Below are positions 19,471 through 40,902 of a stretch of 64,000 nt of DNA, in pieces (position 1 is the stretch's first letter; the number at the start of each line of letters is the position of its first letter). The notes under the pieces are model-generated. The model saw nothing but the letters and a program-made list of their open reading frames with translations, was not told the origin of the DNA and did not search any database. Location of the stretch: contig CAWDFY010000005.1 of NCBI GenBank assembly GCA_963801745.1, positions 918,619 to 982,618 on the forward strand, given 5' to 3'. The DNA comes from an uncultured Chloroflexia bacterium (lineage in GTDB: Bacteria > Chloroflexota > Limnocylindria > Limnocylindrales > CSP1-4). The translations under genes and the position numbers were made by a program.

Positions 19471-20625
19471 CTAGACCACCCGCAGCCCGAGGATCCTGCG
19501 GGCGATCACCAGGCGCTGGACCTGGCTGGTGCCCTCGCCGATCTCGGTCAGCTTCGCGTCGCGCAGGAAGCGCTCGACCGGATAGTCGGTCGTGTAGCCG
19601 TAGCCGCCGTGGACCTGGATCGCGGCGTTCGTCGCCCGCGAGCTCACCTCGGACGCGAACAGCTTGGCCTCCGCAGCCACCAAGCCGTAGTCGCGACCCT
19701 GGTCCTTGAGCCAGGCCGACTTCCAGACGAGCGACCGGGCCGCCTCGATCTCGGTCGCCATGTCGGCGACCATGAACGCCACGCCCTGGAACGTGCCGAT
19801 CGGCCGCCCGAACTGCTCGCGCGTCTGCGCGTACGGGATGCTGGCATCGAGCGCGGCCTGGGCCAGCCCGACCGCGAGCGCTCCGATCGAGATGCGCCCG
19901 CCGTCGAGGATCTTGAGGAACGTCCGGAAGCCCTCGCCCTCGGTCCCGAGCAGGTTGTCGGCCGGGATGCGCGCGCCGTCGAAGCGCAGCTCGCCGGTGG
20001 CCGAGGCGTGCAGGCCGAGCTTGTCCTCGAGGCGTCCCACGCTGAAGCCCGGCGTGTCGGCCGGCACGATGAATGCGCTGATCGCGGCATCGCCCCGGTC
20101 GGTCGTGCCGGTCCGGGCGGTCACCACGTACGTGCCGGCGTGACCGGCGTTGGTGATGAACCGCTTGGCACCGTCGATGACCCACTCATCGCCATCGCGG
20201 CGCGCGGTCGTGCGGGTGCCGCCGGCGTCCGAGCCCGCGCCCGGCTCGGTCAACCCGTAGGCACCCAGCACCCTGCCGCTCGCCATCGGGACGAGGTAGC
20301 GCTGCTTCTGCTCGTCGGTCCCGGCCAGGTGGAGCGGCCCGCAGCCGAGGCTGGTGTGGGCGGCGACGATGAGACCGAGCGAGCCCCACACGCGGCCGAT
20401 CTCCTCGACCGCGATCGCGTAGGCGAGCGTGTCGAGGCCGGCCCCGCCCTCGTCCTCCGGGATCGGGATGCCGAGCCAGCCGAGCTCGCCGATGCGGCGG
20501 ACGATGTCGGTCGGAAAGCGGCGGTCGCGCTCGTGCTCGTCGACCACCGGGGCGACCTCGGTCGTCATGAAGTCCCGGACCGTGTCGCGCAGGAGTGCGT
20601 GCTCCGGGCCCAGATCGAGGTCCAT
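19471..20625 (-). CDS. acyl-CoA dehydrogenase
   Basis: Full-length ACAD: ...[13 protein letters not shown]...FITNAGHAG...[40 protein letters not shown]. Confidence 0.9.
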
Positions 20626-20687
20626 CGGCCGAGCCTACCATCGCCCGGACAGCGTGACCGCGGCCCCGGTGCTAGCCTTCCCGGACC

Positions 20688-21381
20688 ATGCCCGAGCCGC
20701 ATGCCGACCCGAGCGCGCCCGACGCCCCGCGGCCACCGAGCCCGGTCCAGGAACGTGGCACGGTGCGGCACAACCTGCTCCTGCAGCTCCGCCACGACGG
20801 GCCATCGGCCCCCGAGGAGCTGGCTGCCAGCCTCGGGGCGAGCCGGACGGGAGTCCTGCAGCAGCTCCACGCGCTGGAGATCGGCCGGCCTGGTCAGCCG
20901 GAAGGCGGTTCGCCACGGGGTCGGGCGGCCGCGTCACGTGTACGACGTGACCGACGCGGCCCAGGACCTCTTCCCGACCAACTACGACGGTCTCGCCGAT
21001 GGCCTGCTCAGCGCGATCCGGGCGATCGGCGGCGAGACGCTGGTCGATGACGTGTTCGAGGAACGGCGGCGCCTGACCACCGCGAAGGTGCGCCAGCAGC
21101 TCGCGGACCGGCTGCCGACCGACGCGCCGCTGGTCGATCGGGCGCGTGAGCTGGCGGTCATCCAGGATGAGCAGGGCTACCTGGCGGAGGTGGCGATCGG
21201 TGCGGACGGGGTGATCCGGCTGGTCGAGCGCAACTGCGCGATCCATCACATCGCCGCCGGGAACGCCGCGGCCTGCCAGGCGGAGCTGGACCTGTTCCGT
21301 GACGTGCTCGGCGCCGACGTCGAGCGCGAGACGCACATCGTGGCCGGCGACCGCTGCTGCACCTATCGCATCGGCGGGTAG
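20688..21381 (+). CDS. HTH transcriptional regulator (COG2345-like winged helix) with 1-nt frameshift near 20885
   Basis: Frame A reads RHNLLLQLRHDGPSAPEELAASLGASRTGVLQQLHALE. Frame B continues AGLVSRKAVRHGVGRPRHVYDVTDAAQDLF... through the stop at 21381. One extra G in atcggccgg separates the frames. It is divergent from the ACAD gene. Confidence 0.65.
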
Positions 21382-21430
21382 GAGCGCTCGCGGCCACCAC
21401 GGTGCGGGCCCGCCGAACGGCGCCGAAGAC

Positions 21431-22483
21431 CTAGGCTTCCTCGCGCTCCACGGCACCGCGCGACGCGGGCTCGAGGCGCGGCGCCGGCACGTCGGACACG
21501 TTCGGCACGAACGACGCGGCGAGCGACGTCGCGGCCGCCTGCTCCTGGTCGTCGGCCGACAGGATCCCGAGACGCCCGAGCGTCGCCATCTCGTCGCGGA
21601 TGTACGTCTTGAGCATCTCGGGGCCGTCGGTGTTGATCGTGTACCGGATGCCGTTGCGCCGGAACGTGTCGAAGATCCAGCGGAACTCGTCCCAGCCCGA
21701 CACGACCCGGGTGTTGAGGTTCGAGGTCGGGCAGATCTCGAGGACGATGCCGCGCTCGCGGATCATCTCCATCGCGCGCGGGTCGTACGCGGACTTGACG
21801 CCGTGGCCGATGCGGTCGGGCTCGAGCAGCTCGACGACCCGGGCGATCTCGTCGACCGGACCGGCCTCGCCGGTGTGGACCGTGATCCCCAGCCCGAACT
21901 GGCGGGCCCGCCGGAAGAGCCGCCGGTAGTCGGCGACCCGGAAGGTCGATGCCTCGGGGCCGGCGATGTCGATGCCGACCACGCCCCGGTCGCGCCAGCC
22001 GATCGCCTTCTCCGCGATGATCTCGTTGAGCTCGTACGGGAACGCCCGGTCGAGGCAGAAGATCAGCCCGGGCTTCACCGGGTACTCGAGCGTCGCCTTG
22101 TCCATGCCGCGCAGGGCCGCCGCGATGATGTGGTCGAGGTCCTGCTCGCCGCCGCGGTTCCGCTTCATCGGGTTGAAGCGGAGCTCCATCGTCGTGATGT
22201 TGTTCTTGCGGTAGGCGCCGCCGACGACCTCGTACACGGCCCGCTCGACCGCGATCGGGGAGCTCTGGATCAGCTCGGTCCAGTGGAAGAGCTGGAGGTA
22301 GCCGTCGAAGCTCTGGGAGCGCTTCGAGACCGTGATCATGTCCCGGAACTCCCAGTAGTCCTTGGTCGGGAGCTTGATGCCCTGGGCGTGGGCGATGCCC
22401 CACATGATCGCCGGGGTGACGGCGCCGCCGAGATGGCAGTGCAGCTCCGCGAGGGGGATCTTGCGGGCGAGCTGGCGGGCCAT
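21431..22483 (-). CDS. add: adenosine deaminase family protein
   Basis: The sequence reads MARQLARKIPLAELHCHLGG...ITVHTGE...INTDGPEM. The ATG lies at 22483. Upstream ORF-track residues are a different, frameshifted gene. Confidence 0.85.
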   Translation of the reverse strand: MARQLARKIPLAELHCHLGGAVTPAIMWGIAHAQGIKLPTKDYWEFRDMITVSKRSQSFDGYLQLFHWTELIQSSPIAVERAVYEVVGGAYRKNNITTMELRFNPMKRNRGGEQDLDHIIAAALRGMDKATLEYPVKPGLIFCLDRAFPYELNEIIAEKAIGWRDRGVVGIDIAGPEASTFRVADYRRLFRRARQFGLGITVHTGEAGPVDEIARVVELLEPDRIGHGVKSAYDPRAMEMIRERGIVLEICPTSNLNTRVVSGWDEFRWIFDTFRRNGIRYTINTDGPEMLKTYIRDEMATLGRLGILSADDQEQAAATSLAASFVPNVSDVPAPRLEPASRGAVEREEA

Positions 22484-22512
22484 CACCCGCAGGATAGCGT
22501 CGGCGGTCGCTG

Positions 22513-23213
22513 TCAGTCGCACATCGGCAGGTACTTCTCGCCGTCGCGCCGGAGCAGCTGCACGGTCAGCCCGCCCTTCGACGTGAAGATCGCGTGCTCC
22601 GGGTCGATGATCGCCATCGTCCCGTCCGCGGCGTTGATCGCGTCGGGATGGTCGCCGTCGACCCCGCCGACCGGGTCCCACCACGAGCCGCCGACGTCGA
22701 TCCCGCTCCACAATCCGCAGTGACCGAGCGAGAACGGCCGGGGGCCGAGCCCGGCGGGCGGCGGCGAGCTCGGGCCCAGCGAGCACGCCGAATGCGTCCT
22801 GGCGGTCGATCGTGAGGCCGGCCTCCGGGCCGGTCGAGGTGACGTGGTACGACAGCGCACCGGCGCCCGCCTCGAGCGTGATGTCGCCCTGGGGTCGGAC
22901 GGCGAGCGATGTCGCGCAGCCCTCACCGGCCGCGCAGCCGAACGGGCCGACCTGGACGTAGCGCACCTCCGTCCCGGCCGGCACGACGCTCGCGGTCTGG
23001 GCTAGCACCCGGCTGCAATCCTGCGGGCCGAGGCTGACGCACGCGGTCGGGACGTTCGTGAGGTCGACTCCGGCCGCGCGCCGCGGCCGAGGCCGAGGCT
23101 GACGCGGACGCGACGCTCGCTGATGGGGCCGTGGAGGCCCGTGCGGCGGGTCCGGAGCAGGCCGCGACCACGAGCGCGGCGACCGCGAGGACGACCAGCG
23201 GCGAACGGGCCAT
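22513..23213 (-). CDS. lipoprotein with at least 2 frameshifts (about 22750 and about 23060)
   Basis: The lipoprotein signal is MARSPLVVLAVAALVVAACSGP. A middle frame reads TNVPTACVSLGPQDCSRVLAQTASVVPAGTEVRYVQVGPFGCAAGEGCA...LAGPELAAA. A third frame reads PFSLGHCGLWSGIDVGGSWWDPVGGVDGDHPDAINAADGTMAIIDPEHAIFTSKGGLTVQLLRRDGEKYLPMCD*. The switches occur at GC homopolymers (cggcccccggcc). Confidence 0.4.
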
Positions 23214-23257
23214 GCGCCCCGGGACGCCGCGACGGTCCGGTCGGTTCCGAGGTCGGG

Positions 23258-24289
23258 TCAGCCGGCGAGCGGGACGATGCGGCCGTCGACGTCGACCGTG
23301 GCCTGACGGCGTCGTGCGGCACGCAGCTCCGCGCCCGGCACCTGGTCGCGGGCGTGGTAGCTGGAGCGCACCAGCGGCGCCGACTCGACGTGCCTGAACC
23401 CGAGCGCCAACGCGGCCGACTTCATCTCGGCGAACTCGTCGGGGTGGTAGTAGCGCTCGAGCGGCAGGTGCTGCATCGACGGCCGGAGATACTGGCCGAC
23501 CGTGAGGATGTCGACGTCGTTCGCGCGCAGCGCCTCGAACGCCTCCTGCAGCTCGTCGCGGGTCTCGCCCAGCCCGACCATCAGGCTCGACTTGGTGTGG
23601 ACGGCGTAGCCGACGTCGACCGCCATCTCCTTGGCCCGTCGCAGGACGTACAGCGATCGATCCCAGCGTGCCCGCTTGCGGACCGGCTTCTGCAGGCGGC
23701 GGACGGTCTCGAGATTGTGGTTGAGGATGTCGGGCCGGGCGTCCATCACGATCCGGAGTCGGTCGTCCGAGCCGTCGAAGTCGGGGATCAGCACCTCGAT
23801 GCCCATGCCGGGGCTTGTCGATCGCATCCGGGTGATGGTCTCCGCGAAGACCGTCGAGCCGCCGTCGGGCAGGTCGTCGCGGGCCACGCTCGTGACCACG
23901 ACGTGCTCGAGCCCCATGGCGGCGACCGCGACCGCGACCCGCCGCGGCTCGTCGTCGTCGAACCAGGTCGGTCGGCCGGTCTTGACGGCGCAGAACCCGC
24001 ACGCCCGGGTGCACGTGTCGCCGAGGATCATGATCGTGGCCGTGCGCTGGTCCCAGCACTCCCCGATGTTCGGGCAATGCGCTTCCTCGCAGACGGTGTT
24101 GAGCTCGAGCCCGCGCAGCAGCCGCTTCAGGTCGTGGTAGTTGTCGCCGGACGGCATCCGTGCACGGATCCAGTCCGGGTGACGACGGAGGGGCTGCGCC
24201 GAGCCGCCCATCGCGATCGTGTCGGGGACGGGTGGCGGATGATGCCCGCCGGTCGTCGGCGGCTCGAACATCGGCAGCTCACGGGCCAT
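23258..24289 (-). CDS. lipA: lipoyl synthase
   Basis: It contains [12 protein letters not shown] and the radical-SAM CxxxCxxC motif ([15 protein letters not shown]). The ATG at 24289 is at index 125 of the ORF-track entry. Confidence 0.9.
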
Positions 24290-24324
24290 CGTCGGAGTGT
24301 AGTCGCGTTCCGCTAAGGCGGCGG

Positions 24325-24774
24325 TCAGGACGGGACGCCGCCGGGCGGGGCATGGAACTGGCTCCGGACGGCGCTCGCCACCCGGGTCCCGTCCAGGTCG
24401 ACGATGAGCAGGAACCAGTCGGGCGCCGCATCGAAGGCCGGCGCGCGGTCCGCATCGAGGGCGCTGAGCGGGAGGCTCGTCTTGAGCCCGTCGGCCGTTG
24501 GGAACGTCCCGAAGTCCTGGCAACCGGCGCCGGGCGTCCAGCCGTCCCGTTCCCTGGCACCGTCCGGCAGGCGCGGGGGGTCCGCCGGACACAGGTAGAC
24601 CCTGGATATGTCGGCGAACCAGCCGGGCGCGTCGACCTCGACCGAGGTCGGGGTCGTCCACACATGCAGGTTGATCGGCGTCCCGATGTCGAGCGGCTGG
24701 CCGCCGACGCAGCCTCCGACCAGGAACGACACCGCCAGGGCTCCGGCGACGAGGGCCCGGCGGTCAGCGCGCAT
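24325..24774 (-). CDS. small lipoprotein (unknown function)
   Basis: The signal and lipobox are [22 protein letters not shown]. It occupies the position where lipB normally sits between the epimerase and lipA. Confidence 0.55.
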
Positions 24775-25735
24775 CGAAGGTCGTGCGCAGACCGCTGGCG
24801 AGGTCGCGAGGCTGGTAGCCGAGCTCGGTCGCCGCCTTGGCCGACGAACCCCAGAACGTGACGCCGAGGCTCGTCCGCAGCACCTCGCCCAGGTCGTCGG
24901 GCATGCCGATGGCTCGCGCGAGCGCCGCCGGTGCTCGCGATCCGAGCTTCACGAATGCGGTCGGGATCTCGAGCCGTGGCAGGGAGCGGCCGCCGAGGCG
25001 GGCGGCCATCTCCATGGCGTCGCGCAGTCGCAGGTTCGGGCCGCCGAGGAAGTACGACTCGCCGATCCGGCCGCGGTCGAGCGCCGCGACGATCCCGGCC
25101 GCCACGTCGTCGACGTAGGCCGGCGAGATCCCGATGTCGGCCAGCGCGATGTAGCGCAGCGTCCCGTCGTGGGCGGCCTTGAGCTGCTGGCCGATGGCCG
25201 AATGGTCGTTCGGACCGTAGGTCGTGCCCGGCATCGCGATCACGATCCGCGCGCCGGACCCGATCCGTTCGAGCACGGACCGGTGCGACAGGAACTTGGT
25301 CTCGTCGTAGTAGCTGAGGAATCCCTCGGTCAGGTCGCGGCGGTAGCGCTCGTCGACGATCCGACCGTGCGTGTTGCCGGCCACGTTGATCGTCGTGATC
25401 GCGACCATCCGATCGAGACCGGCGGTGGCGAATGCCTCGAGCACCCGGTGGGTGGCGCCCACGTTCGCGTCGTGCATGGCCGGTCGCTCGCTCGCCGGGA
25501 TCCCGACGCGGTACATGCCCGCGAGGTGAATGGCTGCCTCGGTGCCGCGCATCGCGTCGACGATCGACGCGGTTCGCGAGAGGTCGCTCGCCCGGACGTC
25601 GACGCCGAGCTCGGACAGCTCCTCGGCCCGGTCGGGGTCGCGAACGGCGGCGGTGACGGCGTCGCCGCGGGCGATGAGCCTGCGGACCACGGCCGCGCCG
25701 ATGAACCCGGCGCCACCGGTCACGAAGACGCGCAT
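24764..25735 (-). CDS. NAD-dependent epimerase/dehydratase family protein (SDR, Rv2216-like)
   Basis: The N-terminus reads MRVFVTGGAGFIGAAVVRRL, a Rossmann GxxGxxG. Residues upstream of this Met in the ORF-track entry are junk. Confidence 0.8.
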   Translation of the reverse strand: MRVFVTGGAGFIGAAVVRRLIARGDAVTAAVRDPDRAEELSELGVDVRASDLSRTASIVDAMRGTEAAIHLAGMYRVGIPASERPAMHDANVGATHRVLEAFATAGLDRMVAITTINVAGNTHGRIVDERYRRDLTEGFLSYYDETKFLSHRSVLERIGSGARIVIAMPGTTYGPNDHSAIGQQLKAAHDGTLRYIALADIGISPAYVDDVAAGIVAALDRGRIGESYFLGGPNLRLRDAMEMAARLGGRSLPRLEIPTAFVKLGSRAPAALARAIGMPDDLGEVLRTSLGVTFWGSSAKAATELGYQPRDLASGLRTTFDAR

Positions 25736-25772
25736 CAGCGCACCGACGCCCGCCCCGGAGGCGGGGCGATGC

Positions 25773-27197
25773 TCAGTAGATCGGTGTCTCGGGCCCGACG
25801 GCCTCGAGCCATGCCTTGATGTCGCGCAGGAGGGCGGCCCCACCGGCGCCGTCATTCGCGCGATGGTCGACGCCGAGGACCATGTTCATGACCGGACGGA
25901 TCGCGATGACGTCGCCGTCGGGTGTCGACTGGACGACCGGGCGCTTGGTGATCGCCTCCATCGTCACGATGCCGACCTCGGGCACGTTGAGGATCGGCAT
26001 CACGAGGTTGGTCCCGAGGTACCCGGTGTTGTCGACGGTGAACGTGCCGCCGCCGAAGTCGTCGAGACGCAGCTTGTTCGCGCGAGCCCGGTTGGCGACG
26101 TCGGTGATGGCGACGTTGAGACCGTGGATCGACAGTGTGTCGGCATCGCGGATGACCGGGACGAGCAGGCCGTCGTCGACCGCGACGGCAACGCCGATGT
26201 TGACGCGGCGCTTGGCTAGGAGGCCCCCCTCGGTCCAGTGCGCGTTGAACGTCGGATTGCGCTTCAGGGCCTCGGCCGACGCCTTGACGACGAACGGCAC
26301 GAAGCTCAGCGAGATGCCCTCCTTGGCCTGATATGCCCTCTTGGCACGCTCCCGGAGCGCGACCAGCCGGGTGGCATCGACCTCCATCTGGACATATGCG
26401 TGCGGTGCCTGGAGCGCCCGCGTCATCTGGGCCGCGATGCCCTTGCGCATCTGGGTCATCGGCAGGAGGACTTCGTCGCTGCCCTCGGGGAAGTCGACGG
26501 TCGCAGCGGTCGGGAGACCGGACCGGGGCTGTGCCGGTGCGGTCGGCGGGACTGCGGCTCCGTCGGGCTGGGCCTTCGGGGCCGGGGCGGGTTGCGCGGC
26601 CGGTGCGGGCGCCTCGCCGCCGGTCCGGATCCGTTCGACCACCGCCAGGACGTCGTCGCGAGTGATGCGGCCGCCGCCACCGGTCCCGACGATCTGCTCC
26701 GCGCTTAGGCCGTGCTCACGAAGGAGCCGGCGGACGGCGGGCGTCATCCGCGCGTCCGGGTCACCCTGGGCGGTGGGCAGGGCGGCCGTCGCGGCGGGGG
26801 CTGTGGCCGCGGGCTCGGCGGGCTTGACCGGCCTGGCTTCGGGCGCTGGTTCTTCAGCTGGAGGTGCCGCCTCGGCCTTGTCGTCGGGCGCGACCTCGGA
26901 CGCCTTCGCCTCGGCCGGCTTGGCCTCGGCGGGAGCGGACGCCCCGTTCGACGACCCTTCGTCGGCCGTCTCGATCACCGCGATCTCTGCGTTGTTCGGG
27001 ACGGTCGCGCCCTCCTCCGCCAGGATCTCCTTCAGGACGCCCTCGAACGGCGACGGCACCTCGGCGTTGACCTTGTCGGTGATGACCTCGAGGAGCGGCT
27101 CGTACTTGTCGACATGGTCGCCCGGCTGCTTGAGCCACTTTCCGATCGTCCCCTCAGCGACGCTCTCGCCGAGCTGGGGCATCGTCACCTTCGCCAC
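25773..27197 (-). CDS. dihydrolipoamide acyltransferase, E2 component of a 2-oxoacid dehydrogenase complex
   Basis: The lipoyl domain reads MAKVTMPQLGESVAEGTIGKWLK...EVITDKVNAEV. An Ala/Pro linker follows. Then a PSBD domain (TPAVRRLLREHGL) and a catalytic domain (...DHRANDGAGGAALL). Confidence 0.9.
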   Translation of the reverse strand: MAKVTMPQLGESVAEGTIGKWLKQPGDHVDKYEPLLEVITDKVNAEVPSPFEGVLKEILAEEGATVPNNAEIAVIETADEGSSNGASAPAEAKPAEAKASEVAPDDKAEAAPPAEEPAPEARPVKPAEPAATAPAATAALPTAQGDPDARMTPAVRRLLREHGLSAEQIVGTGGGGRITRDDVLAVVERIRTGGEAPAPAAQPAPAPKAQPDGAAVPPTAPAQPRSGLPTAATVDFPEGSDEVLLPMTQMRKGIAAQMTRALQAPHAYVQMEVDATRLVALRERAKRAYQAKEGISLSFVPFVVKASAEALKRNPTFNAHWTEGGLLAKRRVNIGVAVAVDDGLLVPVIRDADTLSIHGLNVAITDVANRARANKLRLDDFGGGTFTVDNTGYLGTNLVMPILNVPEVGIVTMEAITKRPVVQSTPDGDVIAIRPVMNMVLGVDHRANDGAGGAALLRDIKAWLEAVGPETPIY

Positions 27198-27356
27198 GTT
27201 CGCTGTTCCTCCGAGGATCGGGGCACGCGTCGGCGACTAGTGTCGCCCATCCGGGCGAGGTCGGTCGAGTGGCGGTGGTAGCGCTGGTGATGGCTGCGAG
27301 CGATCATTTTTCGCACTAACGGGTCTGCGGGCCCCTCGATCCGCCGATCGACGGCA

Positions 27357-27381
27357 GATCGATCGCCGCGCGCGATCGATC
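27357..27381. promoter_or_regulatory. 10-bp inverted repeat GATCGATCGC-cgcgc-GCGATCGATC in the divergent E2 / cNMP-transporter promoter region, within a cluster of CGATCG motifs
   Basis: Direct reading of 27330..27540 shows repeated cgatcg / gatcgat motifs and one 25-nt dyad. Coordinates are +/-2 nt. Confidence 0.35.
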
Positions 27382-27554
27382 CGTGGCCGAAGTGGCCCGC
27401 GAGTTGGCGGAACTGGAGCTTGGGCGCGAAAACGATCGCCGGCCGTTATCGCCAGGGGGCGAGGCGGCCGCGTCGCGGCGCCTGGGGCCGAAATCGATCC
27501 CTCACAGCGATCGACGCGCGCCGCGGCCACACCTCGCGGGTACGGTACGGAACG

Positions 27555-30344
27555 ATGGACGCCCTCCAGCGCATCCTCGGCATCCGGCCCGGCGAGGGGC
27601 GGATCGTGGCTGGCGTCGCGGCGCTGTTCGCGCTCCTCGAGGCGGCGCGCGGGTTCGGCGAGGTCGGGGCCGACTCGCTGGTCCTGGCCACGTATGGTCC
27701 GGACGCGCTCCCGACCACCCTGCCGTACCTGTTCATCGCGCTCGGGCTCGTCAGCCTCGCGGTCTCCCTCGCCTACTCGGTCGCCCTCGGGCGCCTGCCC
27801 CGGATCCCGCTCTTCCTGGGCGTGCTGCTCGGGATCGCGGCGCTGCTGATCCTGCTGCGGATCGGCCTGGCATCGGGAATCGGGGCCCTCGTGCCGGTCG
27901 TGTGGCTCATCGTGTTCGCGTCGACCGCCATCAACCTGACGATCGCATGGACCGTGAGCGGCGCAACGTTCGATGCCCGGCAGGCCAAGCGCCTCTTCCC
28001 GATGCTGACCGCCGCGGCGATCGGCGGGAGCTTCGTCGGCACGCTCGCCGCCGGGCCGGTCGCTGGGCTGATCGGGGTCGAGTCGCTGGTCGTGGTCCAG
28101 GCGCTGCTGCTCGCGGCCGCGGCCGTCCTGCTGGGCCGCCTGCCCCGGCGACCACGACGGTCGACTGCGGTGGTCGAGCCCACCTCCGTCATCGACGACC
28201 TGCGTGCCGGCTTCGACACCGTCATCCGCTCGCCGCTCATGCGTCTCGTGGCGCTCGCGTACGTCCTGCTGGCGGTGCTGATGTTCTCGCTCAACTACCC
28301 GTTCATGATCGCCGCCGCGCGTCAGTTCCCGAACGACGTCGAGCTCGCGACGGCGCTCGGGCTCCTGTCGGCCGCGATCACCGCGACCTCGTTCGTGATC
28401 TCGCTGGCCCTCGCCAACCGCATCTACGCGCGGTTTGGGATCTCCGCCGGGGCGCTGGCACTGCCGCTCGTGTACGCGGTCGGCTTTGCCGGCTGGCTGG
28501 TCCAGTTCTCGTTCGCGTCCGCGGCCGCGTTCCGGTACGCCCAACAGGCCACGCAGCGGGGCGTCTCGAATGCAGCATGGAGCGCGTTCTACAACGTCGT
28601 CCCCGCGTCGCGTCGGGCCCAGGCGCTGGCGTTCAATGACGGGGTCCCCGGCCAGGTCGGCACCGTGCTGTCCGGGCTCCTGCTGCTGGTGGTGGCGAAC
28701 CTCAGTGGCCTGGAGCCGGTCTTCTGGCTGGGGCTGGCGACGGCCGTCGTCGCCACGGCCATCGTGCTCGCGATCCGGCGGCGCTACGCCGACAGCCTCC
28801 TCGCCGCGCTCCGATCCGGCCTGGCCGAGCAGGTCCTCGAGGGGGGGCCGGGACTGCCATACGCGATCGACCGACCGGAGGAGCGCGCGGCGGTCGTGGC
28901 GATGCTGGATGCGGCCGAGCCGGCCACGCGCCGCCTCGCCACGTCGATCCTCGGACGGGCCGCGAACCTCCGCCCCGAGGACCGCGCCCGGCTGGTCGGT
29001 CTGCTCGACGACCCCGATCCCGCGGTCCGAGCCGAAGCCGCGGTCGCCGCATTGACGGATCACCCGGACGACGAGCACTCGAACGCGACGCTCGCTGCCC
29101 TGCTCCTGAGCACCGACGACGAGGCGCGTATCGCCGGTCTGGATGCGGCCGCCCGGATCCCCGAGTGCGTTCCATCCGAGCTCCTAGCGCCACTCCTGTC
29201 CGCGGAGCGACCGGCCGTGCGGGCGGCCGCGATCACGGCGGCAGCGGCCCGCCGCGACGCAACGCATGTCGCCCCGACGCCGGCGCTCATCGCCGCGCTC
29301 GACGATCCCGCACGTGTCGTCAGGTCCGCCTCCGCCGACGCGCTGGCGATCCGGCCCGGTGCAGGACCCGGTCTCATCGAGGTCCTGCGCGACGGGGGGC
29401 CCGACGCGATCGACGCCGCCCTCGCCGCGGTGGGCGGACACGCGTCCGACGTCGAGGACGACCTGCTCGGCTGGGCGCGTGGGCGGATCGAGCGGGCCGA
29501 GGACCTCCATCGGGCGCACACGTCGGTCGTGATGCTGGCCGGTCGGACCGAGACGCTCGATTTCCTCGACGCGGTCCTCGATCAGCGTGCCCGCGCCGCC
29601 GAGGACCGCGCGATCGCCGCCGTCGTGGCGGTCGGGGCACCATCGGCCGGTGGCCTGATGCGACGCTCGCTGCGTTCGTCAGACCAGGACGCCCGGGCGC
29701 AGGCCATCGAAGCGCTCGACTCGTTGGGAGGACGCGACCTCGGCCGCGCATTGACCGCGTGCCTCGAGGCGGTCGCCGACCGGCACGGCAGCGATCCACT
29801 GGCGACGCTCGTGGACCTGACGCAAGATGACGATCCGTGGATCGCGTCGCTGAGTCGGAGCGTCCGCGAGGAGATGAGCGGAAACGCAGCGGATGAGAGG
29901 TCGATGTCGGGTCAGGACGGCGCCGCGAGCGAGCTCGAGACGATGCTGCTCTTGCGTCGCGTCCCGCTGTTCGCCGGCCTCGAGCCGGAGGACCTCCAGC
30001 GCGTCGCCGCCGTCGCCGTCGAACGCGAGTACCCGTCGGGCGTCGCGCTCATGCGCGAGGGTGACCTCGGCGACGAGCTGATCGTCCTCGTCGATGGCTC
30101 GGTGCGGGTCGTCCAGGCCGGACCGAACGGCGAGGAGCGGTTCATCCGGCGGTACGAGGCGGGCGAGCACATCGGCGAGCTCGCCGTGCTGCGCGACCGG
30201 CCTCGGATCGCCACGGTGATCGCCGAGGGCGAGGTCCGCGGCCTCGTGCTCGGTGGGGACGGTCTTCGGGCGATCCTGCGCGAGCGTCCCGAGGCGGCCA
30301 TGGCGATGCTCGCCACGCTCGCGGAGCGCATCTCCAGCCAGTAG
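27555..30344 (+). CDS. 12-TM transporter domain (MFS / ADP-ATP-translocase-like) fused to HEAT repeats and a C-terminal cyclic-nucleotide-binding (CNB) domain
   Basis: The ATG is at 27555. About 12 hydrophobic helices span residues 1-440. HEAT-like repeats follow (DPDPAVRAEAAVAAL, ERPAVRAAAITAAA, DDPARVVRSASADALA). The CNB domain reads LLRRVPLFAGLEPEDL...GDELIVLVDGSVRV...GEHIGELAVL...RIATVIAEGEVRGLVL. Confidence 0.8.
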   Translation: MDALQRILGIRPGEGRIVAGVAALFALLEAARGFGEVGADSLVLATYGPDALPTTLPYLFIALGLVSLAVSLAYSVALGRLPRIPLFLGVLLGIAALLILLRIGLASGIGALVPVVWLIVFASTAINLTIAWTVSGATFDARQAKRLFPMLTAAAIGGSFVGTLAAGPVAGLIGVESLVVVQALLLAAAAVLLGRLPRRPRRSTAVVEPTSVIDDLRAGFDTVIRSPLMRLVALAYVLLAVLMFSLNYPFMIAAARQFPNDVELATALGLLSAAITATSFVISLALANRIYARFGISAGALALPLVYAVGFAGWLVQFSFASAAAFRYAQQATQRGVSNAAWSAFYNVVPASRRAQALAFNDGVPGQVGTVLSGLLLLVVANLSGLEPVFWLGLATAVVATAIVLAIRRRYADSLLAALRSGLAEQVLEGGPGLPYAIDRPEERAAVVAMLDAAEPATRRLATSILGRAANLRPEDRARLVGLLDDPDPAVRAEAAVAALTDHPDDEHSNATLAALLLSTDDEARIAGLDAAARIPECVPSELLAPLLSAERPAVRAAAITAAAARRDATHVAPTPALIAALDDPARVVRSASADALAIRPGAGPGLIEVLRDGGPDAIDAALAAVGGHASDVEDDLLGWARGRIERAEDLHRAHTSVVMLAGRTETLDFLDAVLDQRARAAEDRAIAAVVAVGAPSAGGLMRRSLRSSDQDARAQAIEALDSLGGRDLGRALTACLEAVADRHGSDPLATLVDLTQDDDPWIASLSRSVREEMSGNAADERSMSGQDGAASELETMLLLRRVPLFAGLEPEDLQRVAAVAVEREYPSGVALMREGDLGDELIVLVDGSVRVVQAGPNGEERFIRRYEAGEHIGELAVLRDRPRIATVIAEGEVRGLVLGGDGLRAILRERPEAAMAMLATLAERISSQ

Positions 30345-30353
30345 AGTCGGGTC

Positions 30354-32988
30354 GTGGTCGAGAGCGACATCACCGACCGGACGCTGCCGACCGGCACCGT
30401 CACGTTCCTCCGGACCGATGTCGAGGGCTCGATGGCCCTCAGCCGAGCCCTCGGGTCGCGCTGGGACGCGCTGAACGACCGGCACCTCGGGCTCATCCGC
30501 GGGGCGGTCGACGCGGCCGGCGGGGTGGTCGTCCGGACCGAGGGGGACGCCGTCTTCGCGGCCTTCCAGGAAGCCGGTGCCGGCGTCCGGGCGGCCATCG
30601 AGGCGCAACGGGCCCTCGTCGAGGCCGACTGGCCGGCGGACGCGCAGATCCGCGTCCGGATGGGTCTCCACAGCGGCGAGGCGCACCTGGCCGGCGACGA
30701 CTACGGCGGTTTCGACGTCAATCGGGCAGCGCGCGTCGCTGCCACCGGTCACGGCGGCCAGATCATCCTCAGCTCCACGACCCGCGGTCTGGTCGAGTCG
30801 TCACTGCCGGATGGCGTGGACCTCCGCGACCTCGGACGGCATGCGTTGCGCGACCTGCCGCAACCCGAGCAGCTGTTCCAGCTCGACGTGCCAGGCCTTC
30901 GAACGGCATTCCCGGCGCTGCGCACCGCCATGCCGACCATCGGTGATCTGCCATCGCGGATGACCAGCTTCGTCGGTCGCGAGGCCGAGCTCGATGAGCT
31001 ACGCGAGCTGCTGGGCGAGCAGCGGCTGGTGACGCTGACCGGTCCTGGCGGGATCGGCAAGACGAGCCTGGCCGTAGAGACGGCGCGCTCCGTGGCCCAC
31101 CGCTTTGCCGACGGGGCGTGGTTCGTGCCGCTCGCCCAGGTCGACGAGCCGTCGATCGTAGCCTCGGTCATCGCCCGCACGATCGGCCTGTTCGACGGAC
31201 CCGCGAGGCCCGCCAGAGATGCCCTCGGCCCCTACCTCGCCGAGCGGTCGGTCCTGCTCGTGCTCGACAACTTCGAGCGCCTGCTCGACGCGTCGAGCGA
31301 TGTCGCCGACATCCTCCGCGCGTCATCAGCTTCGAGGATCCTGTTGACCAGCCGGGCGCCACTGCGGATCCCAGGCGAGCAGGAGTATCCGGTCAGGCCG
31401 CTGGTCGAAGCCTGCCCGACGCTGTTCGTGGAGCGCGCACGAGCGGTCAAACCTGGCTGGGAGCCCGGGGCCGAAGCAGCAGTCCTCGATGACGTGTGCT
31501 CCCTGCTCGACGGGCTGCCGCTCGGGGTCGAGCTGGCAGCGGCCCGCGTCGCGCACCTACCGGTGACCGCCATCCGGGACCGCCTGGCTGCGCGCTTGCC
31601 GCTCCCGGGTGCGGGCCCGCGCGATGTGCCGGACCGGCAGCGCACGCTGGCGGCCGCCTTCGAGTGGAGCCACGACATGCTCTCGACCGGATCGCAGCAT
31701 GTCCTGCACGATCTGGCCGTATTCGAAGGTGGGTTCGACCTCGACCAGGCCACGCAGGTGGTTCAGCCGACCGATGACGGCGTCGACGTGCTCGATCACC
31801 TCGTGGCGCTCGTCGACCAGAGCCTCGTCAAGCGCGATGCGGAGGACTCGGTCGGATCCGGGATCCGCTTCCGGCTGCTCGCGACGATCCGTGGCTTCGC
31901 GCTCGAGCGACTTGACGGCGAGGGCCGATCGGAGGAGGCCCGGCGGCGGCACGCCGTCGCGTACCTCGCGCTGGCCGAACAGGCGGCGCCGACGATGCCG
32001 GGACCAAACCAGCCGCGGTGGCTAGCGCGCCTGACCATCGACTACGACAACATCCGCGCGGCGATCCGATGGACCATCGACGCCGGTGAGGTCGAGCTCG
32101 CGTTGCGGTTCGTGGCCGCGATGTGGCGCTATTGGCAGCAGGATGGCCATCTTGTCGAAGGCGCCGACCTGGCGGAGGCGGCGCTTGCGATGCCCGGTGC
32201 CGATGCCACGACGGAGCATCGGCTTGCTGCCGTCACGGCGGCGGGTGGGATCGCGTACTGGCAGAACCGGCGAGCGGACGCGCTCGGGTGGTACGAGGAG
32301 GAGCTCGCGGTCGCACGCCGGCTCGGACACGTGGCAGGCGAGGCGGACGCCCTCTGGAACCTGGCCTACGGACGATATGTCGCCGAGGATACGTCGGGTG
32401 CGGAGGAGCTCCTGCGACGGTCTCGTCGGCTGTTCGAGCAAGTCGGTGACGAGCGAGCGATCGCGCGTGTCGATTGGTCGATAGCGACGCTGCTTGGCGC
32501 GATCGCGATGAGTCGGGAACAACTGCCAGTGTTCGAGTCTCTGCTGGACAGAATTCGAGCGCCTCGGCGACCCGTGGTACGCCTCTCAAGCGAAGTCCAG
32601 CATCGCCTGGGTGCTGTTCATGACCGGCGACCTGCCCGGCGCCAGTCGCTGGTACATCCGCGGGCTGACGACGGCGCTTGGCCTTCGAGACCTTACCGGG
32701 GCGACCATCTCGCTCGAGGTCGCGGCTGTGGTGGCCGCGGAAGCCGGGCGGCCCGAGGAGGGTGCGGCGATGATGGGGGCGTCCGAGCACCTTCGCGAGC
32801 TGTACGGGGTGGAGCCACCACAGGGTTTGCAGGAGCTCATCGGACAGGCGTCGCCGCGCGAGCGTCTCGTGGCGCTGCTCCTCCCGGACCGCTTCGCGGC
32901 CTCGTTCGACCGCGGCCGGCAGATGACGATCGATGAGGCGGTCGCCCTGATCATCCGGGTCCAGGACGAGACCTGGGGTGGCGCTTGA
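30354..32988 (+). CDS. class III nucleotidyl (adenylyl/guanylyl) cyclase + NB-ARC/AAA ATPase + TPR (STAND) protein, copy 1; frameshift near 32552
   Basis: The cyclase domain reads TVTFLRTDVEGSMALS...RTEGDAVFAAF...RVRMGLHSGEAHLAGDDYGGFDVNRAARVAATGHGGQII. Walker A is LTGPGGIGKTSLA. The C-terminal 125 aa (ORF 32611..32988) is homologous to the end of copy 2 but lies in a different frame. The gene begins 10 nt after the CNB-transporter stop. Confidence 0.75.
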
Positions 32989-35633
32989 CACACGCAGGTA
33001 CCGACCGGACGCTGCCGACCGGCACCGTCACGTTCCTCCGGACCGATGTCGAGGGCTCCATGGCCCTCAGCCGAGCCCTCGGGTCGCGCTGGGACGCGCT
33101 GAACGACCGGCACCTCGGGCTCATCCGCTCGGCGGTCGACGCGGCCGGCGGGGTGGTCGTCCGGACCGAGGGGGACGCCGTCTTCGCGGCCTTCCAGGAA
33201 GCCGGTGCCGGCGTCCGGGCGGCCATCGAGGCGCAACGGGCCCTCGTCGAGGCCGACTGGCCGGCGGACGCGCAGATCCGCGTCCGGATGGGTCTCCACA
33301 GCGGCGAGGCGCACCTGGCCGGCGACGACTACGGCGGTTTCGACGTCAATCGGGCAGCGCGCGTCGCTGCCACCGGGCACGGCGGCCAGATCCTTCTGTC
33401 GGGCGCATCGCAGGCGCTCGTCGCCGACGCACTGCCCGACGGCGTCACGCTGCGCGACCTTGGCACGTACGTGCTGCGCGACGTGCCGCGCCCGGAGCGG
33501 CTGTTCCAGGCCGACGCCTCCGGCCTGCCGACAGCGTTCCCGCCGCCGCGCGCCGGTCGGGTCGAGATCGGCAACCTCGACGATCGACTCACGACGTTCG
33601 TCGGTCGGGACGAGCCCGTCCGAGAGCTGCGGGAGCTCCTCGGGACGTCACGGCTGGTGACGCTCACCGGGGCGGGCGGCATCGGCAAGTCGAGTCTCGC
33701 GTTGGAGACAGCTCGGGCAGCCCAGGAGGGGTTCGCCGACGGGGCGTGGTTCGTCCCGCTTGCGACCATCGATGGGACCGAGGAGGTGCTGCCTCTCGTC
33801 GCCCGGACGCTCGGGCTGTACGACGGTTCGGCGAGCTCGGCTGCCGACACGCTTCCGCGCTTCATGGCCGATCGCTCGCTCTTACTCCTCCTCGACAACT
33901 TCGAGCACGTCGTCGATGCGGCGCCGGTCGTGGCGAACCTCGTCCGGTGGTCGTCTCGATCGCGAGTCCTGGTCACGAGTCGGACGCCACTGCGTCTCGC
34001 CGCCGAGCAGGAATATCCGGTCGCCCCGCTCACGGTCGAGGCAGGTGCAGACGTGAGTCCGCCCGACGGCGACACTCCCGCTCGACGATTGTTCGTGGAT
34101 CGGGCTCGGGCCGTCCGTCCAGGCTGGGATCCCGGGACGGAGATCTCGGTCGTGGACGAGATCTGCCGGCTCGTCGACGGCCTGCCGCTCGGGATCGAGC
34201 TGGCCGCCGCCCGAGTGGCGCTGCTGCCGCTCGGCGCGATCCGTGATCGCCTGGCCGCGTCGCTACCGCTGCCCGGCGCCGGGTCCCGCGACGCTCCAGC
34301 GCGCCAGCGGACGCTTGAGGCCACCGTCGAGTGGAGCCACGGCCTGCTGAGCCCCGATCTCCAACGCGCACTGCACCGGTTCTCGGTATTCGAGGGCGGC
34401 GCGGATGTCGACCAGGCCCAGGACGTGTTGGTGGATCACGGCGCCGCCGACGACGTCCTCGACCGACTCGTCGAGCTCGCCGAACGAAGCCTGCTCGAGC
34501 GCGACCCCTCGCCGCTCGGCATCCGATTCCGGATGCTCCGAACGATCCAGACCTTCGCCGAGGTGAGACTCGAGCACGACGATGACGAAACGGCGGTCCG
34601 CCGCCGGCACGCCCAGACCTTCCTGGATCTCGCCCGGCAAGCGCAACGAGACGAGGGCACGGCTGCACAGGTCCCCTGGATCGAGCGCCTGTCGATCGAC
34701 GATGCCAACCTTCGCGCGGCGATCCGTTGGGCGATCGACCACGACGCGCGTCTTGCGCTCGCACTCGTGGCGGCCGCCTGGCGGTTCTGGCAGACCGACG
34801 GCCATCTCACCGAGGGCCGCACGCTCGCCGACCGGGCCCTCGCGTTGCCCGATGCCGCCGCCCCGACGGTCGAGCGGATGTGGGCGGTGGGTGCCGCGGG
34901 GAGCATCGCATACTGGCAAGCCGACTCAGAGACGGCACAACGTCGCTACGAAGAGCAGGTCGCCCTGGCCCGGGCGCTCGACGACGAGCGGGGCATCGCC
35001 GACGCCCTCTTCAACCTCGCCCATACGGAGTTCATCCATCTGGCCGATGCGGAAGCGGCGCACGTCCTGCTCGATGACGTCGTCTCGCGATACCGGGATC
35101 TGGGCGACGAGCGCGGGGTAGTCCGGGCGGAGTGGGCGGCCAGCAACGTGCTCCTCGACGAGCACCGGACCGAGGAGGCGACGGCCTTGATGCAGCGGCT
35201 GCTGCTCGAGTTCGAGCGACTCGGCGACACGCAGTATCACGCGATGGCGCTCGGGAGCCTGTCCTGGGCGGCATTCATGGCCGGGGACACGCAGGATTCG
35301 ATCGGCTACGCCGCGGGTGCGCTGCGCGAGTCGTACGACATGCGCGACCTCGGGACCACGACGATCTCGATGCATGTCGGCGTCCTGATCGCGCTGATCA
35401 CCGGGCGACCGGAGGTGGCTGCACGGCTGACCGGTGTCTTCGACGCCGCGAGCGAGCGCTATGGCGTCAGGCCGCCGGCCGCGCTGGACCGGTTCCTCGC
35501 CGACCAAGATCCGTTCAGCGCGGCCCGGGAAGCGCTCACGCCCGAGCGATGGGAGATCGAATACGCGGCGGGCCGCCGGATGAGCCTGGGTGAGGCCGTG
35601 GACGTCGTGGAGTCCATGGCCCCGACCCGCTGA
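32985..35633 (+). CDS. class III nucleotidyl cyclase + NB-ARC/AAA ATPase + TPR (STAND) protein, copy 2 (intact)
   Basis: The N-terminal 150 aa are near-identical to copy 1 at the protein and DNA level. Walker A is LTGAGGIGKSSLA. The C-terminus is a TPR-like helical region. The TTG start overlaps the copy-1 stop (TTGA). Confidence 0.85.
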   Translation: MTHAGTDRTLPTGTVTFLRTDVEGSMALSRALGSRWDALNDRHLGLIRSAVDAAGGVVVRTEGDAVFAAFQEAGAGVRAAIEAQRALVEADWPADAQIRVRMGLHSGEAHLAGDDYGGFDVNRAARVAATGHGGQILLSGASQALVADALPDGVTLRDLGTYVLRDVPRPERLFQADASGLPTAFPPPRAGRVEIGNLDDRLTTFVGRDEPVRELRELLGTSRLVTLTGAGGIGKSSLALETARAAQEGFADGAWFVPLATIDGTEEVLPLVARTLGLYDGSASSAADTLPRFMADRSLLLLLDNFEHVVDAAPVVANLVRWSSRSRVLVTSRTPLRLAAEQEYPVAPLTVEAGADVSPPDGDTPARRLFVDRARAVRPGWDPGTEISVVDEICRLVDGLPLGIELAAARVALLPLGAIRDRLAASLPLPGAGSRDAPARQRTLEATVEWSHGLLSPDLQRALHRFSVFEGGADVDQAQDVLVDHGAADDVLDRLVELAERSLLERDPSPLGIRFRMLRTIQTFAEVRLEHDDDETAVRRRHAQTFLDLARQAQRDEGTAAQVPWIERLSIDDANLRAAIRWAIDHDARLALALVAAAWRFWQTDGHLTEGRTLADRALALPDAAAPTVERMWAVGAAGSIAYWQADSETAQRRYEEQVALARALDDERGIADALFNLAHTEFIHLADAEAAHVLLDDVVSRYRDLGDERGVVRAEWAASNVLLDEHRTEEATALMQRLLLEFERLGDTQYHAMALGSLSWAAFMAGDTQDSIGYAAGALRESYDMRDLGTTTISMHVGVLIALITGRPEVAARLTGVFDAASERYGVRPPAALDRFLADQDPFSAAREALTPERWEIEYAAGRRMSLGEAVDVVESMAPTR

Positions 35634-35649
35634 CCACCGAGATCCTGAT

Positions 35650-36615
35650 TCAGCTCGGGTCGATCCCCCAGTCGACGAAGTACTCGTTGTCGTTCGGCGT
35701 GTTCGTGACCTGGACGAGGTCCGACCCGTCGAGCGCCATCGTGTAGATATCGGCGTTGTCGGACGTGCCGACGGCCATGTTGAACACAAGCCGGGAACCG
35801 TCAGGCGAGAACGTCGGTGCGTTCCCCCAATTGTGGTCCGGGGGAAGGTCGATCATCCGTAGGTCGGACCCGTCGGGTCGCACGAGGATGAACCGGGTCT
35901 CGGTGTACGGCACCAAGGCGCGACCGGCGGCCAGCCACTGGCCGTCGCGCGACCAGCTCACCTCGTTGCCGACCGGGTCGGGGATGACCTGGTGTGCCGC
36001 ACCGGTGTTCACGTCGGCGACCCAGATCGTACCGGTGTCCTCACCCGCATCGCCACGCACGAAGGCGAGCTGCCGGCCGTCCGGCGAGAAGTCACCGGGG
36101 ATGTCGTTGCCGCCTTGGCCGTTCGTCGTCAGCCGGGTCGGGCCCGAACCGTCGGCGGCGTTGGCGAGGAAGATCCCGTTGCGGGACGTGTCCTGATCGT
36201 TCCATCCTTCGGACGCGAGCCGGCGCCCGTCGGGGGACCATGTCGAGCAGCCGAGCGTCACGCCGTCGCCCGTGTTCGGGAACGCGGTCTGGCCCGATCC
36301 GTCGACGTTGATGGTCCCGAAGCCCACGGACAGACGGCGACCGTCCGGCGAGAACTGCGGGCATTCGTTCGGACCAGGGATGACCACGTGGACGTCCGAC
36401 CCATCCGGGCGAGCGATATGGACGACTGTGTCATCGACGGCTGCGGAGAAACGGCCGAAGACGATCGGGCCGTTCTGGACCGGGATCGGTGTCAGTCGCC
36501 AGCCGCCGACCGTGAGGCCGACGGCGACGATGGCGATCAGCAACGCGAGGACGAGGAGGAACGCCCAGACCGGTGCGATGTGCATCCGGCCGAACGAGCG
36601 TGCAGTGGTAGTCAT
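35650..36615 (-). CDS. TolB-like / PD40 WD40 beta-propeller protein with N-terminal TM anchor
   Basis: AGGAG lies 8 nt before the ATG at 36615. The TM helix is MHIAPVWAFLLVLALLIAIVAVGLTV. PD40 repeats recur (FSPDGRRL, WSPDGRRLA, FSPDGRQLAF, WSRDGQWLA, FSPDGSRLVF). Confidence 0.7.
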   Translation of the reverse strand: MTTTARSFGRMHIAPVWAFLLVLALLIAIVAVGLTVGGWRLTPIPVQNGPIVFGRFSAAVDDTVVHIARPDGSDVHVVIPGPNECPQFSPDGRRLSVGFGTINVDGSGQTAFPNTGDGVTLGCSTWSPDGRRLASEGWNDQDTSRNGIFLANAADGSGPTRLTTNGQGGNDIPGDFSPDGRQLAFVRGDAGEDTGTIWVADVNTGAAHQVIPDPVGNEVSWSRDGQWLAAGRALVPYTETRFILVRPDGSDLRMIDLPPDHNWGNAPTFSPDGSRLVFNMAVGTSDNADIYTMALDGSDLVQVTNTPNDNEYFVDWGIDPS

Positions 36616-36768
36616 CGGATGGCTCCTGAGGGACGCCAGCCAGACCGGCTGCTGCCGGCGACCGGCAGTCGTGTCGAGGATCGCGTTCGACCTGGCCATC
36701 CACGATGGTTCGGTCGGCGGTGATCTCGAGATGGGCGCGGAGGATCAGCTCGACGTCTCGCTGTGCGT

Positions 36769-38340: not shown

Positions 38341-38467
38341 CCAGAAGCCTCCCTTCCCCGGCGGATACAGCTCCGCCGATCCCTCTTATGCCCGGCCATC
38401 CTGGGTAGATCGATCCCGGATCGCGCGGCCCGGTGGATCGTAGCGGCGCCACCGCTCCTGGCGTGTC

Positions 38468-40895: not shown

Positions 40896-40902
40896 CGGTC
40901 GA

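Follow-up and report, generated by a model that had tools for sequence, protein, structure and literature searches.

Genes and features of the locus

We analysed a 64,000-nt stretch of DNA, referred to below as the window, from an uncultured Chloroflexia bacterium of the order Limnocylindrales (assembly GCA_963801745.1, contig CAWDFY010000005.1, positions 918,619 to 982,618 of the forward strand). It carries a gene for a 929-aa protein in which a membrane domain resembling nucleotide transporters of the NTT family is followed by a HEAT-repeat array and a C-terminal cyclic nucleotide-binding (CNB) domain. Directly downstream, on the same strand as had been predicted, lie two genes for class III nucleotide cyclases fused to a STAND NTPase and TPR repeats. 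The coordinates are collected in Table 1, and the 929-aa protein is called the transporter for short.

The reading frame of the transporter is open from position 27420, and the ATG at 27555 is the first in it. This start agrees with the N-termini in 34 aligned homologues. A Pfam search of the protein returned cNMP_binding at aa 823–910 (E 1.3e-19 to 2.4e-18), HEAT_2 (E 1.8e-11) and HEAT (E 1.3e-4), and in the N-terminal 420 aa it reached MFS_1 only below threshold. The full-length protein was modelled with AlphaFold2 (AF2), with a predicted local distance difference test (pLDDT) of 82 and a predicted template-modelling score (pTM) of 0.49; for the membrane domain alone the values were 78 and 0.80. 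The models contain 12 membrane helices, arranged as 6+6 around an Arg-rich central loop, a solenoid whose helices have pLDDT values of 85–94 and whose profile matches in the PDB are alphaRep/HEAT proteins, and at aa 800–929 a beta-roll domain with flanking helices. The original prediction of a single chain with about 12 transmembrane helices, a HEAT array and a C-terminal CNB domain is thus confirmed by Pfam and AF2 taken together. Because the pTM of the full-length model was only 0.49, the packing of the domains against each other was left uninterpreted. Judged by the numbers of Lys and Arg residues in its loops, the protein has both ends on the cytoplasmic side, and the HEAT and CNB domains would therefore be cytoplasmic as well.

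Table 1. Positions in the window of the transporter, its parts and the neighbouring genes.
Feature	Position	Strand	Residues	Basis or remark
Transporter-HEAT-CNB gene	27555–30344	+		Open reading frame and translation, Pfam domains, >120 full-length homologues
Membrane domain, 12 helices, predicted MFS fold, divergent NTT/TLC family	27597–28814	+	aa 15–420	
FDARQAKRLFP motif, family signature	27969–28001	+	aa 139–149	Aligns with NTT motif EAK(R/K)FYxLF
Juxtamembrane linker RRRYADSLLAALRSGLAEQVLEGGPG, candidate coupling element	28776–28853	+	aa 408–433	Near-invariant; low-confidence model
HEAT-repeat alpha-solenoid, ~20 helices	28875–29879	+	aa ~441–775	Pfam HEAT_2/HEAT, AF2
CNB domain with conserved C-terminal helix	29952–30341	+	aa ~800–929	Pfam and PDB matches
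Phosphate-binding cassette GEHIGELAVLRDRPRIATVIA	30162–30224	+	aa 870–890	Aligned to PKA cassette
Cyclase-STAND-TPR copy 1, frame broken at ~32551/32552 as assembled	30354–32988	+		Pfam; tblastn; comparison with relative L008
Cyclase-STAND-TPR copy 2, intact	32985–35633	+	882 aa	Pfam; Ma1120 match; catalytic residues
Divergent intergenic region, presumed promoter region	27237–27554	.		318 nt between E2 gene (-) and transporter; gene positions
E2	25773–27236	-		
E1-beta	38893–39981	-		
E1-alpha	39876–41216	-		
E3	40903–42348	-		

A widespread family

When the 929-aa protein was used in a word-indexed protein search, 577 matches were obtained, and more than 120 of them were full-length proteins of the same architecture with 47–95% identity. 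The combination of domains is therefore far beyond chance. Some of these homologues are annotated as 'HEAT repeat protein/ATP/ADP translocase' or 'Npt1/Npt2 family nucleotide transporter'. A profile of the membrane domain, compared with 1.84 billion cluster representatives (50% identity), gave 6,233 matches at E<=1e-3 and 2,887 at E<=1e-10, and among the 150 profile matches listed most were 900–1,050 aa long. The nearest genome contigs come from soil metagenome-assembled genomes (MAGs) labelled uncultured Chloroflexia or Candidatus Limnocylindrales, in which the best protein match is 94% identical. Relatives with the tripartite architecture, whose search had been suggested together with that of their neighbours, are thus plentiful, and a cyclase gene adjoins the transporter in most of the loci from species-representative genomes, as described below.

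The CNB domain keeps a complete cassette

The cassette string on which the CNB domain had been predicted, GEHIGELAVL...RIATVIAEGEVRGLVL, was located at aa 870–900, within a domain called by Pfam and modelled by AF2 as a beta-roll. The cassette proper, IGELAVLRDRPRIATV, aligns position by position with the cassettes of PKA regulatory subunits (GELALL..PRAATV). In 35 close homologues G874, E875, L876, A877, R884 and A886 are invariant, and the equivalents of the cassette Gly, Glu, Arg and Ala are likewise invariant in a distant alignment (A4) of 13 relatives with 33–41% identity. Loss of the conserved Arg or Glu would have spoken against nucleotide binding, and it is clear that both residues are present and invariant in close and distant homologues alike.

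The best PDB matches of the domain are PKA regulatory subunits, PKG and CRP-family proteins (E 1e-25 to 1e-18). It is also matched by the PycTIR model of PADLOC (E 1.6e-9) and by the PycTIR structure 8jsj (E 3e-8). The residue that follows the cassette Arg is Ile in the window protein and Ala in the family consensus, which reads RAAT as in PKA. A cassette with neither Thr nor Ser after the Arg resembles cAMP-type cassettes, and this may be taken as a hint of the ligand.

The C-terminal helix of the domain (RERPEAAMAMLATLAERI) is near-invariant. The juxtamembrane linker also contains invariant columns in alignments A1 and A2, the latter made of the membrane domains of close homologues, and its pLDDT is below 50 over aa 412–432. 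We propose that the helix and the linker may act as output and coupling elements, respectively.

The membrane domain is related to nucleotide transporters

The original prediction left the membrane region as either MFS-like or ADP/ATP translocase-like, and both descriptions proved apt. Among 35 homologues, 8 reached the Pfam TLC family weakly and 29 touched MFS_1, and the more distant relatives P0265, P0267 and P0181 (E ~1e-72) exceed the Pfam gathering score for TLC. With the A2 profile no meaningful match was found in the PDB. A profile made from ten diverse membrane domains (A3) matched two PDB sequences only, the nucleotide transporters CpNTT1 of Chlamydia pneumoniae (E 5.6e-9) and AtNTT1 of Arabidopsis (E 9e-8), and this alignment passes through the invariant (D)ARQAKRLFP motif, of which RQAKRLFP is invariant also in A4. 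In a Foldseek search with the membrane domain AtNTT1 came first, above other MFS transporters (E 2.7e-8, template-modelling score (TM) 0.74).

No other part of the protein is as conserved as the membrane domain, whose mean column identity in A2 is 70%, and many Arg, Gln, Asp and Glu residues in or near its helices are invariant in this alignment. Judged by fold prediction and profile comparison, it has an MFS fold with a sequence affinity specifically to NTTs, from which it is very divergent, so that membership in NTT/TLC holds at the level of profiles and not of the single sequence.

Two downstream cyclase-STAND-TPR genes

The two downstream genes are paralogous and start with GTG (30354, copy 1) and TTG (32985, copy 2). 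In each, Pfam identified an N-terminal class III cyclase domain (Guanylate_cyc), an NB-ARC/AAA_16 STAND NTPase and TPR repeats (TPR_12); nSTAND1 was matched too. The P-loops, GPGGIGKT in copy 1 and GAGGIGKS in copy 2, conform to GxxGIGK[ST], and the Walker B motif (hhhhDN) is intact. Together with the C-terminal repeat sensor, all the hallmarks of a STAND NTPase are present in these proteins.

The stop codon of the transporter ends at 30344, which leaves 9 nt before copy 1. As assembled, the reading frame of copy 1 runs from 30354 to 32936, and its final ~130 aa are out of frame. A tblastn comparison showed that a 1-nt insertion at ~32551/32552 shifts the homology with copy 2 into a different frame, which ends at 32988. 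At the site of the shift the window reads GGACAGAATTC, with an extra A, and the relative L008 reads GGACAG-ATTC. The cyclase copies of L008 and of another relative, L001, are themselves frameshifted, at different places, and the long-read MAG contigs contain many split genes. For these two reasons, an indel error of the assembly or of the long reads is at least as likely as a real pseudogene. Once the frame is corrected, copy 1 overlaps the TTG of copy 2 by 4 nt. The short first spacer that had been predicted therefore stands, whereas the predicted overlap at the second junction is true only of the frame-corrected gene. A scan for terminator-like sites between the transporter and the two cyclase genes found none, and this, together with the 9-nt and 4-nt-overlap junctions, suggests that the three genes are co-transcribed.

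The best solved relative of the cyclase domain is the mycobacterial adenylyl cyclase Ma1120 (E 1.7e-21). Six diagnostic positions were taken from the Ma1120 alignment and counted in 70 cyclase domains that neighbour homologues of the transporter. Both metal-binding Asp residues, the transition-state Arg and the adenine-type Asp were found in all 70 domains, and the transition-state Asn in 57. The position of the canonical selecting Lys is held by Arg in 62 domains, by Gly in 8 and by Lys in none. Both cyclases of the window carry the catalytic D, D, N and R. At the selecting position copy 2 has Arg60 (window 33162–33164), and copy 1 has Arg as well. From these residues the cyclases look catalytically competent, and cAMP is their most likely, though not assured, product.

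We also compared the DNA of the two copies (30354–30760 with 32985–33390). They are 98–100% identical over gene nucleotides ~100–400, beyond which identity drops abruptly to ~62–65% and then to 41–58% at the 3' end that encodes the TPR repeats. The same pattern of a conserved core and a diverged end was seen between the cyclase paralogues of L008, a sister species. It suggests that the cyclase core was recently homogenised by gene conversion while the sensor ends diverged. Tandem arrays of two to three copies of this gene lie downstream of the transporter in L008, L034, L050 and L056, and L001 has a single copy.

The cyclase accompanies the transporter across genomes

To see how far the arrangement extends, we surveyed 79 loci in species-representative genomes, using a hidden Markov model of the cyclase domain and tblastn. 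At 60 loci a cyclase gene on the same strand starts between about -15 and +150 nt from the stop of the transporter, and at three more the same downstream arrangement was masked by matches to a frameshifted transporter. Six loci have the cyclase immediately upstream on the same strand, with spacers of 6–12 nt in the two that were checked by Pfam. Two contigs had no room for a neighbour, and at eight loci there was no adjacent cyclase. A class III cyclase thus adjoins the transporter on the same strand in 69 of the 77 loci with room (63 downstream, 6 upstream), and the pairing is kept in loci that lack the flanking E2 gene. At one of the loci without an adjacent cyclase (L081:2834-5887), a STAND regulator of the AAA_16-TPR-LuxR (GerE) type lies directly upstream of the transporter, that is, the same type of partner minus the cyclase domain.

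Among more distant relatives the type of cyclase changes. P0265, with ~33% identity, has an Rv1264-type cyclase (Ad_Cy_reg and Guanylate_cyc) 50 nt upstream, and the gene of P0226 is followed by one for a cyclase-AAA_16-TPR protein. Of 32 full-length loci in a diverse metagenome sample, 14 have a cyclase domain within 4.5 kb. Two relatives, P0190 (2,154 aa) and P0212 (2,129 aa, on a 321-kb contig), unite the membrane domain, HEAT, cNMP_binding, Guanylate_cyc, AAA_16 and MalT-like TPR in one polypeptide. The order of the domains matches that of the operon. The two fusions are independent, and they lie in unrelated genomic contexts. The selecting Lys is replaced by Arg in P0190 and by Gln in P0212.

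Adjacency in both orders, exchange of the cyclase architecture and gene fusion, when combined, are strong comparative evidence that transporter and cyclase are functionally linked. The idea of a paired producer and reader of a ligand, which had been put forward from the window alone, is supported, better than by a single operon, by the 69 of 77 adjacent loci, the swapped partner types and the two six-domain fusions.

Genomic surroundings

The transporter-cyclase pair is inserted in a 2-oxoacid dehydrogenase cluster, whose parts lie at 19471–27236 (-) and 38893–42348 (-). Genes for an epimerase, an adenosine deaminase and an acyl-CoA dehydrogenase are found near it, and in relatives also one for lipoyl synthase. 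This layout is repeated across many Limnocylindrales loci. On a contig of the closest relative (ENA ERZ25039576 contig_122920) two paralogous sets of E2, transporter, cyclase-STAND, E1 and E3 genes, L001 and L002, lie ~39 kb apart, and their transporters share 95% and 74% identity, respectively, with the window protein. Since this contig holds two full sets, the transporter-cyclase pair seems either to have been duplicated together with the dehydrogenase cluster or to have been kept in both copies of it. Judged by position, a second copy in the genome of the window would lie just past the 3' end of the window. The G+C content is ~72% and uniform along the window, and an origin of the locus in a mobile element or island was rejected on account of the uniform G+C and the conserved synteny.

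The region between the divergent E2 and transporter genes is presumed to serve as promoter. Neither a sigma-70-like promoter consensus nor an Rfam match was found in it. More generally, the Rfam, promoter and terminator scans revealed nothing regulatory in or near the operon. The sole Rfam match in the window is a thiamine pyrophosphate riboswitch at 60536–60642 (-) (RF00059, 62.1 bits, E 8.9e-10).

Several neighbouring genes may be mentioned. The adenosine deaminase gene (21431–23257, -) encodes 608 aa, with the A_deaminase domain at aa 268–586 and ~265 extra N-terminal residues; in relatives the gene at this place encodes either ~350 or ~600 aa. A PD40-repeat gene (35650–36744, -) and a gene for a small voltage-gated-type ion channel (Ion_trans / Ion_trans_2, 276 aa; 37555–38385, -) lie in the interval from the cyclases to the E1 genes, where L001 has a sigma-70 factor gene as well.

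A possible second-messenger circuit and its alternatives

It seems likely, with a probability that we put at about 60%, that the locus encodes a private second-messenger circuit, in which the STAND-type cyclases make a cyclic nucleotide that regulates the NTT-like transporter. The circuit would consist of two modules, the two downstream cyclase-STAND-TPR proteins and the 929-aa protein of the inner membrane. A signal would be bound by the TPR region and, by analogy with other STAND proteins, would cause nucleotide exchange and oligomerisation of the STAND module. Class III cyclases are active only as dimers, and oligomerisation could bring the cyclase domains together into active dimers. These would produce a cyclic nucleotide, most likely cAMP, to be bound by the cytoplasmic CNB domain of the transporter. 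Movement of the C-terminal helix would then travel along the HEAT solenoid and, by way of the juxtamembrane linker, reach the NTT-like domain with its 12 helices, and the transport of an anionic, probably nucleotide-type, substrate would be switched on or off. If this is true, we are dealing with a bacterial secondary transporter that is regulated by a second messenger and has its own STAND-controlled source of it.

Several observations weigh against such a circuit. The Pfam match of the cyclase domain to Guanylate_cyc is barely over threshold (~24 bits, cut-off 21.9), and copy 1 is frameshifted as assembled. Of the Lys-Asp pair that selects adenine only the Asp is present, so the product may differ from cAMP. 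A cyclase is not nearby in ~10% of the close loci and in more than half of the distant ones. The window protein did not match TLC in single-sequence scans with Pfam and NCBIfam. Finally, with the low pTM of the full-length model, the coupling path has no support from inter-domain geometry.

The same pair of genes could also be read as a source of nucleotide with an outlet, either a sink or a route of secretion, rather than a producer plus a regulated importer. The NTT-like domain would then export the cyclase product (cAMP) or ATP, and the CNB domain would monitor the cytoplasmic level and open the exporter once the nucleotide accumulates. We regard this as unlikely, although the substrates of the NTT family, to which the membrane domain is related, are nucleotides, and the cyclase is in close linkage with the transporter, to the point of fusion. 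In mycobacteria Rv0386, with its cyclase-ATPase-TPR layout, is linked to the delivery of cAMP outside the bacterium, and to our knowledge bacterial cAMP exporters are poorly defined. On the other side, sequence separates neither export from import nor a cyclic nucleoside monophosphate (cNMP) from another substrate, and the known NTTs are ATP/ADP exchangers or nucleotide importers, not exporters of cNMP.

The fusions show that the modules can act as a single assembly, and HEAT repeats serve as protein-interaction scaffolds. One may then imagine a membrane domain that senses a cue from outside or from the membrane but does not transport, a HEAT solenoid on which the STAND cyclase docks, and a CNB domain that feeds back on the cyclase. 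The distance of the membrane domain from functional NTTs and the missing direct Pfam match of the window protein to TLC would agree with such a receptor or scaffold. Nevertheless, the high conservation of the membrane domain and the retained NTT signature motif agree better with a functional path for a substrate than with a vestige, and we think this reading improbable.

A further version, in our opinion a long shot, joins scaffold and transport: the transporter and the STAND cyclases would form one physical machine, in which the TPR-STAND part docks on the HEAT repeats and a locally made cNMP opens an NTT-type nucleotide release. That nucleotide may not be cAMP, because Arg, Gly or Gln replaces the selecting Lys. 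Were this so, nucleotides could be released as an extracellular signal or in an abortive-infection-like response. The machine would represent a new class of ligand-gated nucleotide conduit and would suggest a function for the NTT-HEAT proteins of cyanobacteria, chlamydiae and oomycetes.

An anti-phage role of the Pycsar or STAND (Avs-like) kind would have the TPR-STAND part sense an invader, the cyclase raise a cNMP alarm, and the CNB-bearing membrane effector drain nucleotides or collapse the membrane. The logic of a class III-like cyclase with such an effector parallels Pycsar, and the CNB domain matches PycTIR both in PADLOC and in the PDB. The substrate-selecting residues are non-canonical, and the duplicated STAND-TPR genes, with diverged TPR ends (24–39% at the aa level) next to a cyclase core of ~99% DNA identity, resemble sensor diversification. 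We nevertheless consider a defence function very unlikely: the pair has a fixed position in the dehydrogenase cluster in dozens of species and not in a variable island, PADLOC matched only the CNB domain and gave no significant match of the cyclase-STAND proteins to PycC or Avs, and the CNB domain is much nearer to the PKA and CRP types than to PycTIR. The uniform G+C and the nature of the putative effector, a complete transporter of 12 helices whose polar residues are strongly conserved, and not a short membrane-disrupting module, point the same way.

Some domains of the CNB fold bind other ligands, as NtcA binds 2-oxoglutarate, and the position of the pair between E2 and E1/E3 genes in many relatives, together with the separate pair in each of the two paralogous clusters on one relative's contig, might suggest a non-cNMP ligand that ties the transporter to the dehydrogenase, the cyclase being an incidental neighbour; the invariant canonical cNMP cassette and a cyclase link that outlasts the loss of the dehydrogenase context and reaches gene fusion make this hardly credible.

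Comparison with known systems

With the canonical NTT/TLC ATP:ADP translocases AtNTT1 and CpNTT1 (PDB 9j3j-9j3o) the transporter family shares its predicted 12-helix MFS fold and the motif W..A......AK(R/K).(F/Y)P.LF.

That a secondary transporter can carry a CNB domain at a cytoplasmic C-terminus is known from SLC9C1, the sperm Na+/H+ exchanger with voltage sensor and CNBD, which has been solved and for which cAMP- and cGMP-bound structures are deposited. It headed the Foldseek list of the full-length model, through the CNBD alone (TM ~0.13). SLC9C1 differs in that its fold is of the NhaA type and not MFS, and in that it is eukaryotic and has neither a HEAT solenoid nor a genetically linked cyclase. 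For the mycobacterial MFS-CNB proteins Rv3239c and Rv3728 we found no functional data at the level of titles and abstracts.

The layout of the cyclase proteins, in which a class III cyclase at the N-terminus precedes a STAND NTPase (NB-ARC/AAA) and TPR repeats, recurs in mycobacterial Rv0386, Rv1358 and Rv2488c. The substrate-selecting residues of Rv0386 are the non-canonical Gln/Asn. The cyclases of the window differ from this group in lacking a C-terminal LuxR helix-turn-helix and in being tied genetically to a CNB-bearing transporter, and their selecting pair is Arg-Asp, in contrast to Lys-Asp or Gln-Asn.

Pycsar shares the two-gene logic of a cyclase and a CNB-bearing effector. The locus described here departs from it by its location in the core genome, by a full MFS/NTT transporter in place of a short TM or TIR effector and by the fusion of the cyclase to a STAND NTPase. 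In PADLOC the CNB domain was matched by the PycTIR model and the cyclases were unmatched, so that the locus does not qualify as Pycsar.

The closest known relatives are the NTT-HEAT-cNBD fusions, described from sequence in 2017 as monophyletic, widespread and uncharacterised (Major, Embley & Williams, Genome Biol Evol, PMC5381601). The order of their parts, an NTT-like membrane domain, HEAT and a C-terminal cNBD, is that of the window protein, in which an NTT/TLC domain recognised at profile level, HEAT repeats (PF13646/PF02985) directly C-terminal to it and a cNBD (PF00027) are found in the same polypeptide. The Chloroflexota clade is so divergent, in contrast, that the window protein misses Pfam TLC. 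NTT-HEAT(-cNBD) proteins were reported from cyanobacteria, Chlamydia trachomatis and oomycetes, and the authors raised the possibility that the uptake of ATP is adjusted by cAMP which an adenylate cyclase supplies (PMC5381601). Our literature searches for a characterisation of these proteins after 2017 found none. As far as the accessible text of the 2017 survey goes, it included just two Chloroflexi sequences and did not report cyclase neighbours or fusions (PMC5381601). The architecture and the idea of regulation by cAMP were thus already known (PMC5381601), and the gene of the window, from a soil Chloroflexota MAG, is an ordinary further member of that family. The new element is the conserved partnership with a cyclase, up to gene fusion, and the cyclase partner turns the speculation of 2017 into a defined experiment, in which the product of the cyclase, its binding by the CNB domain and its effect on transport can be followed.

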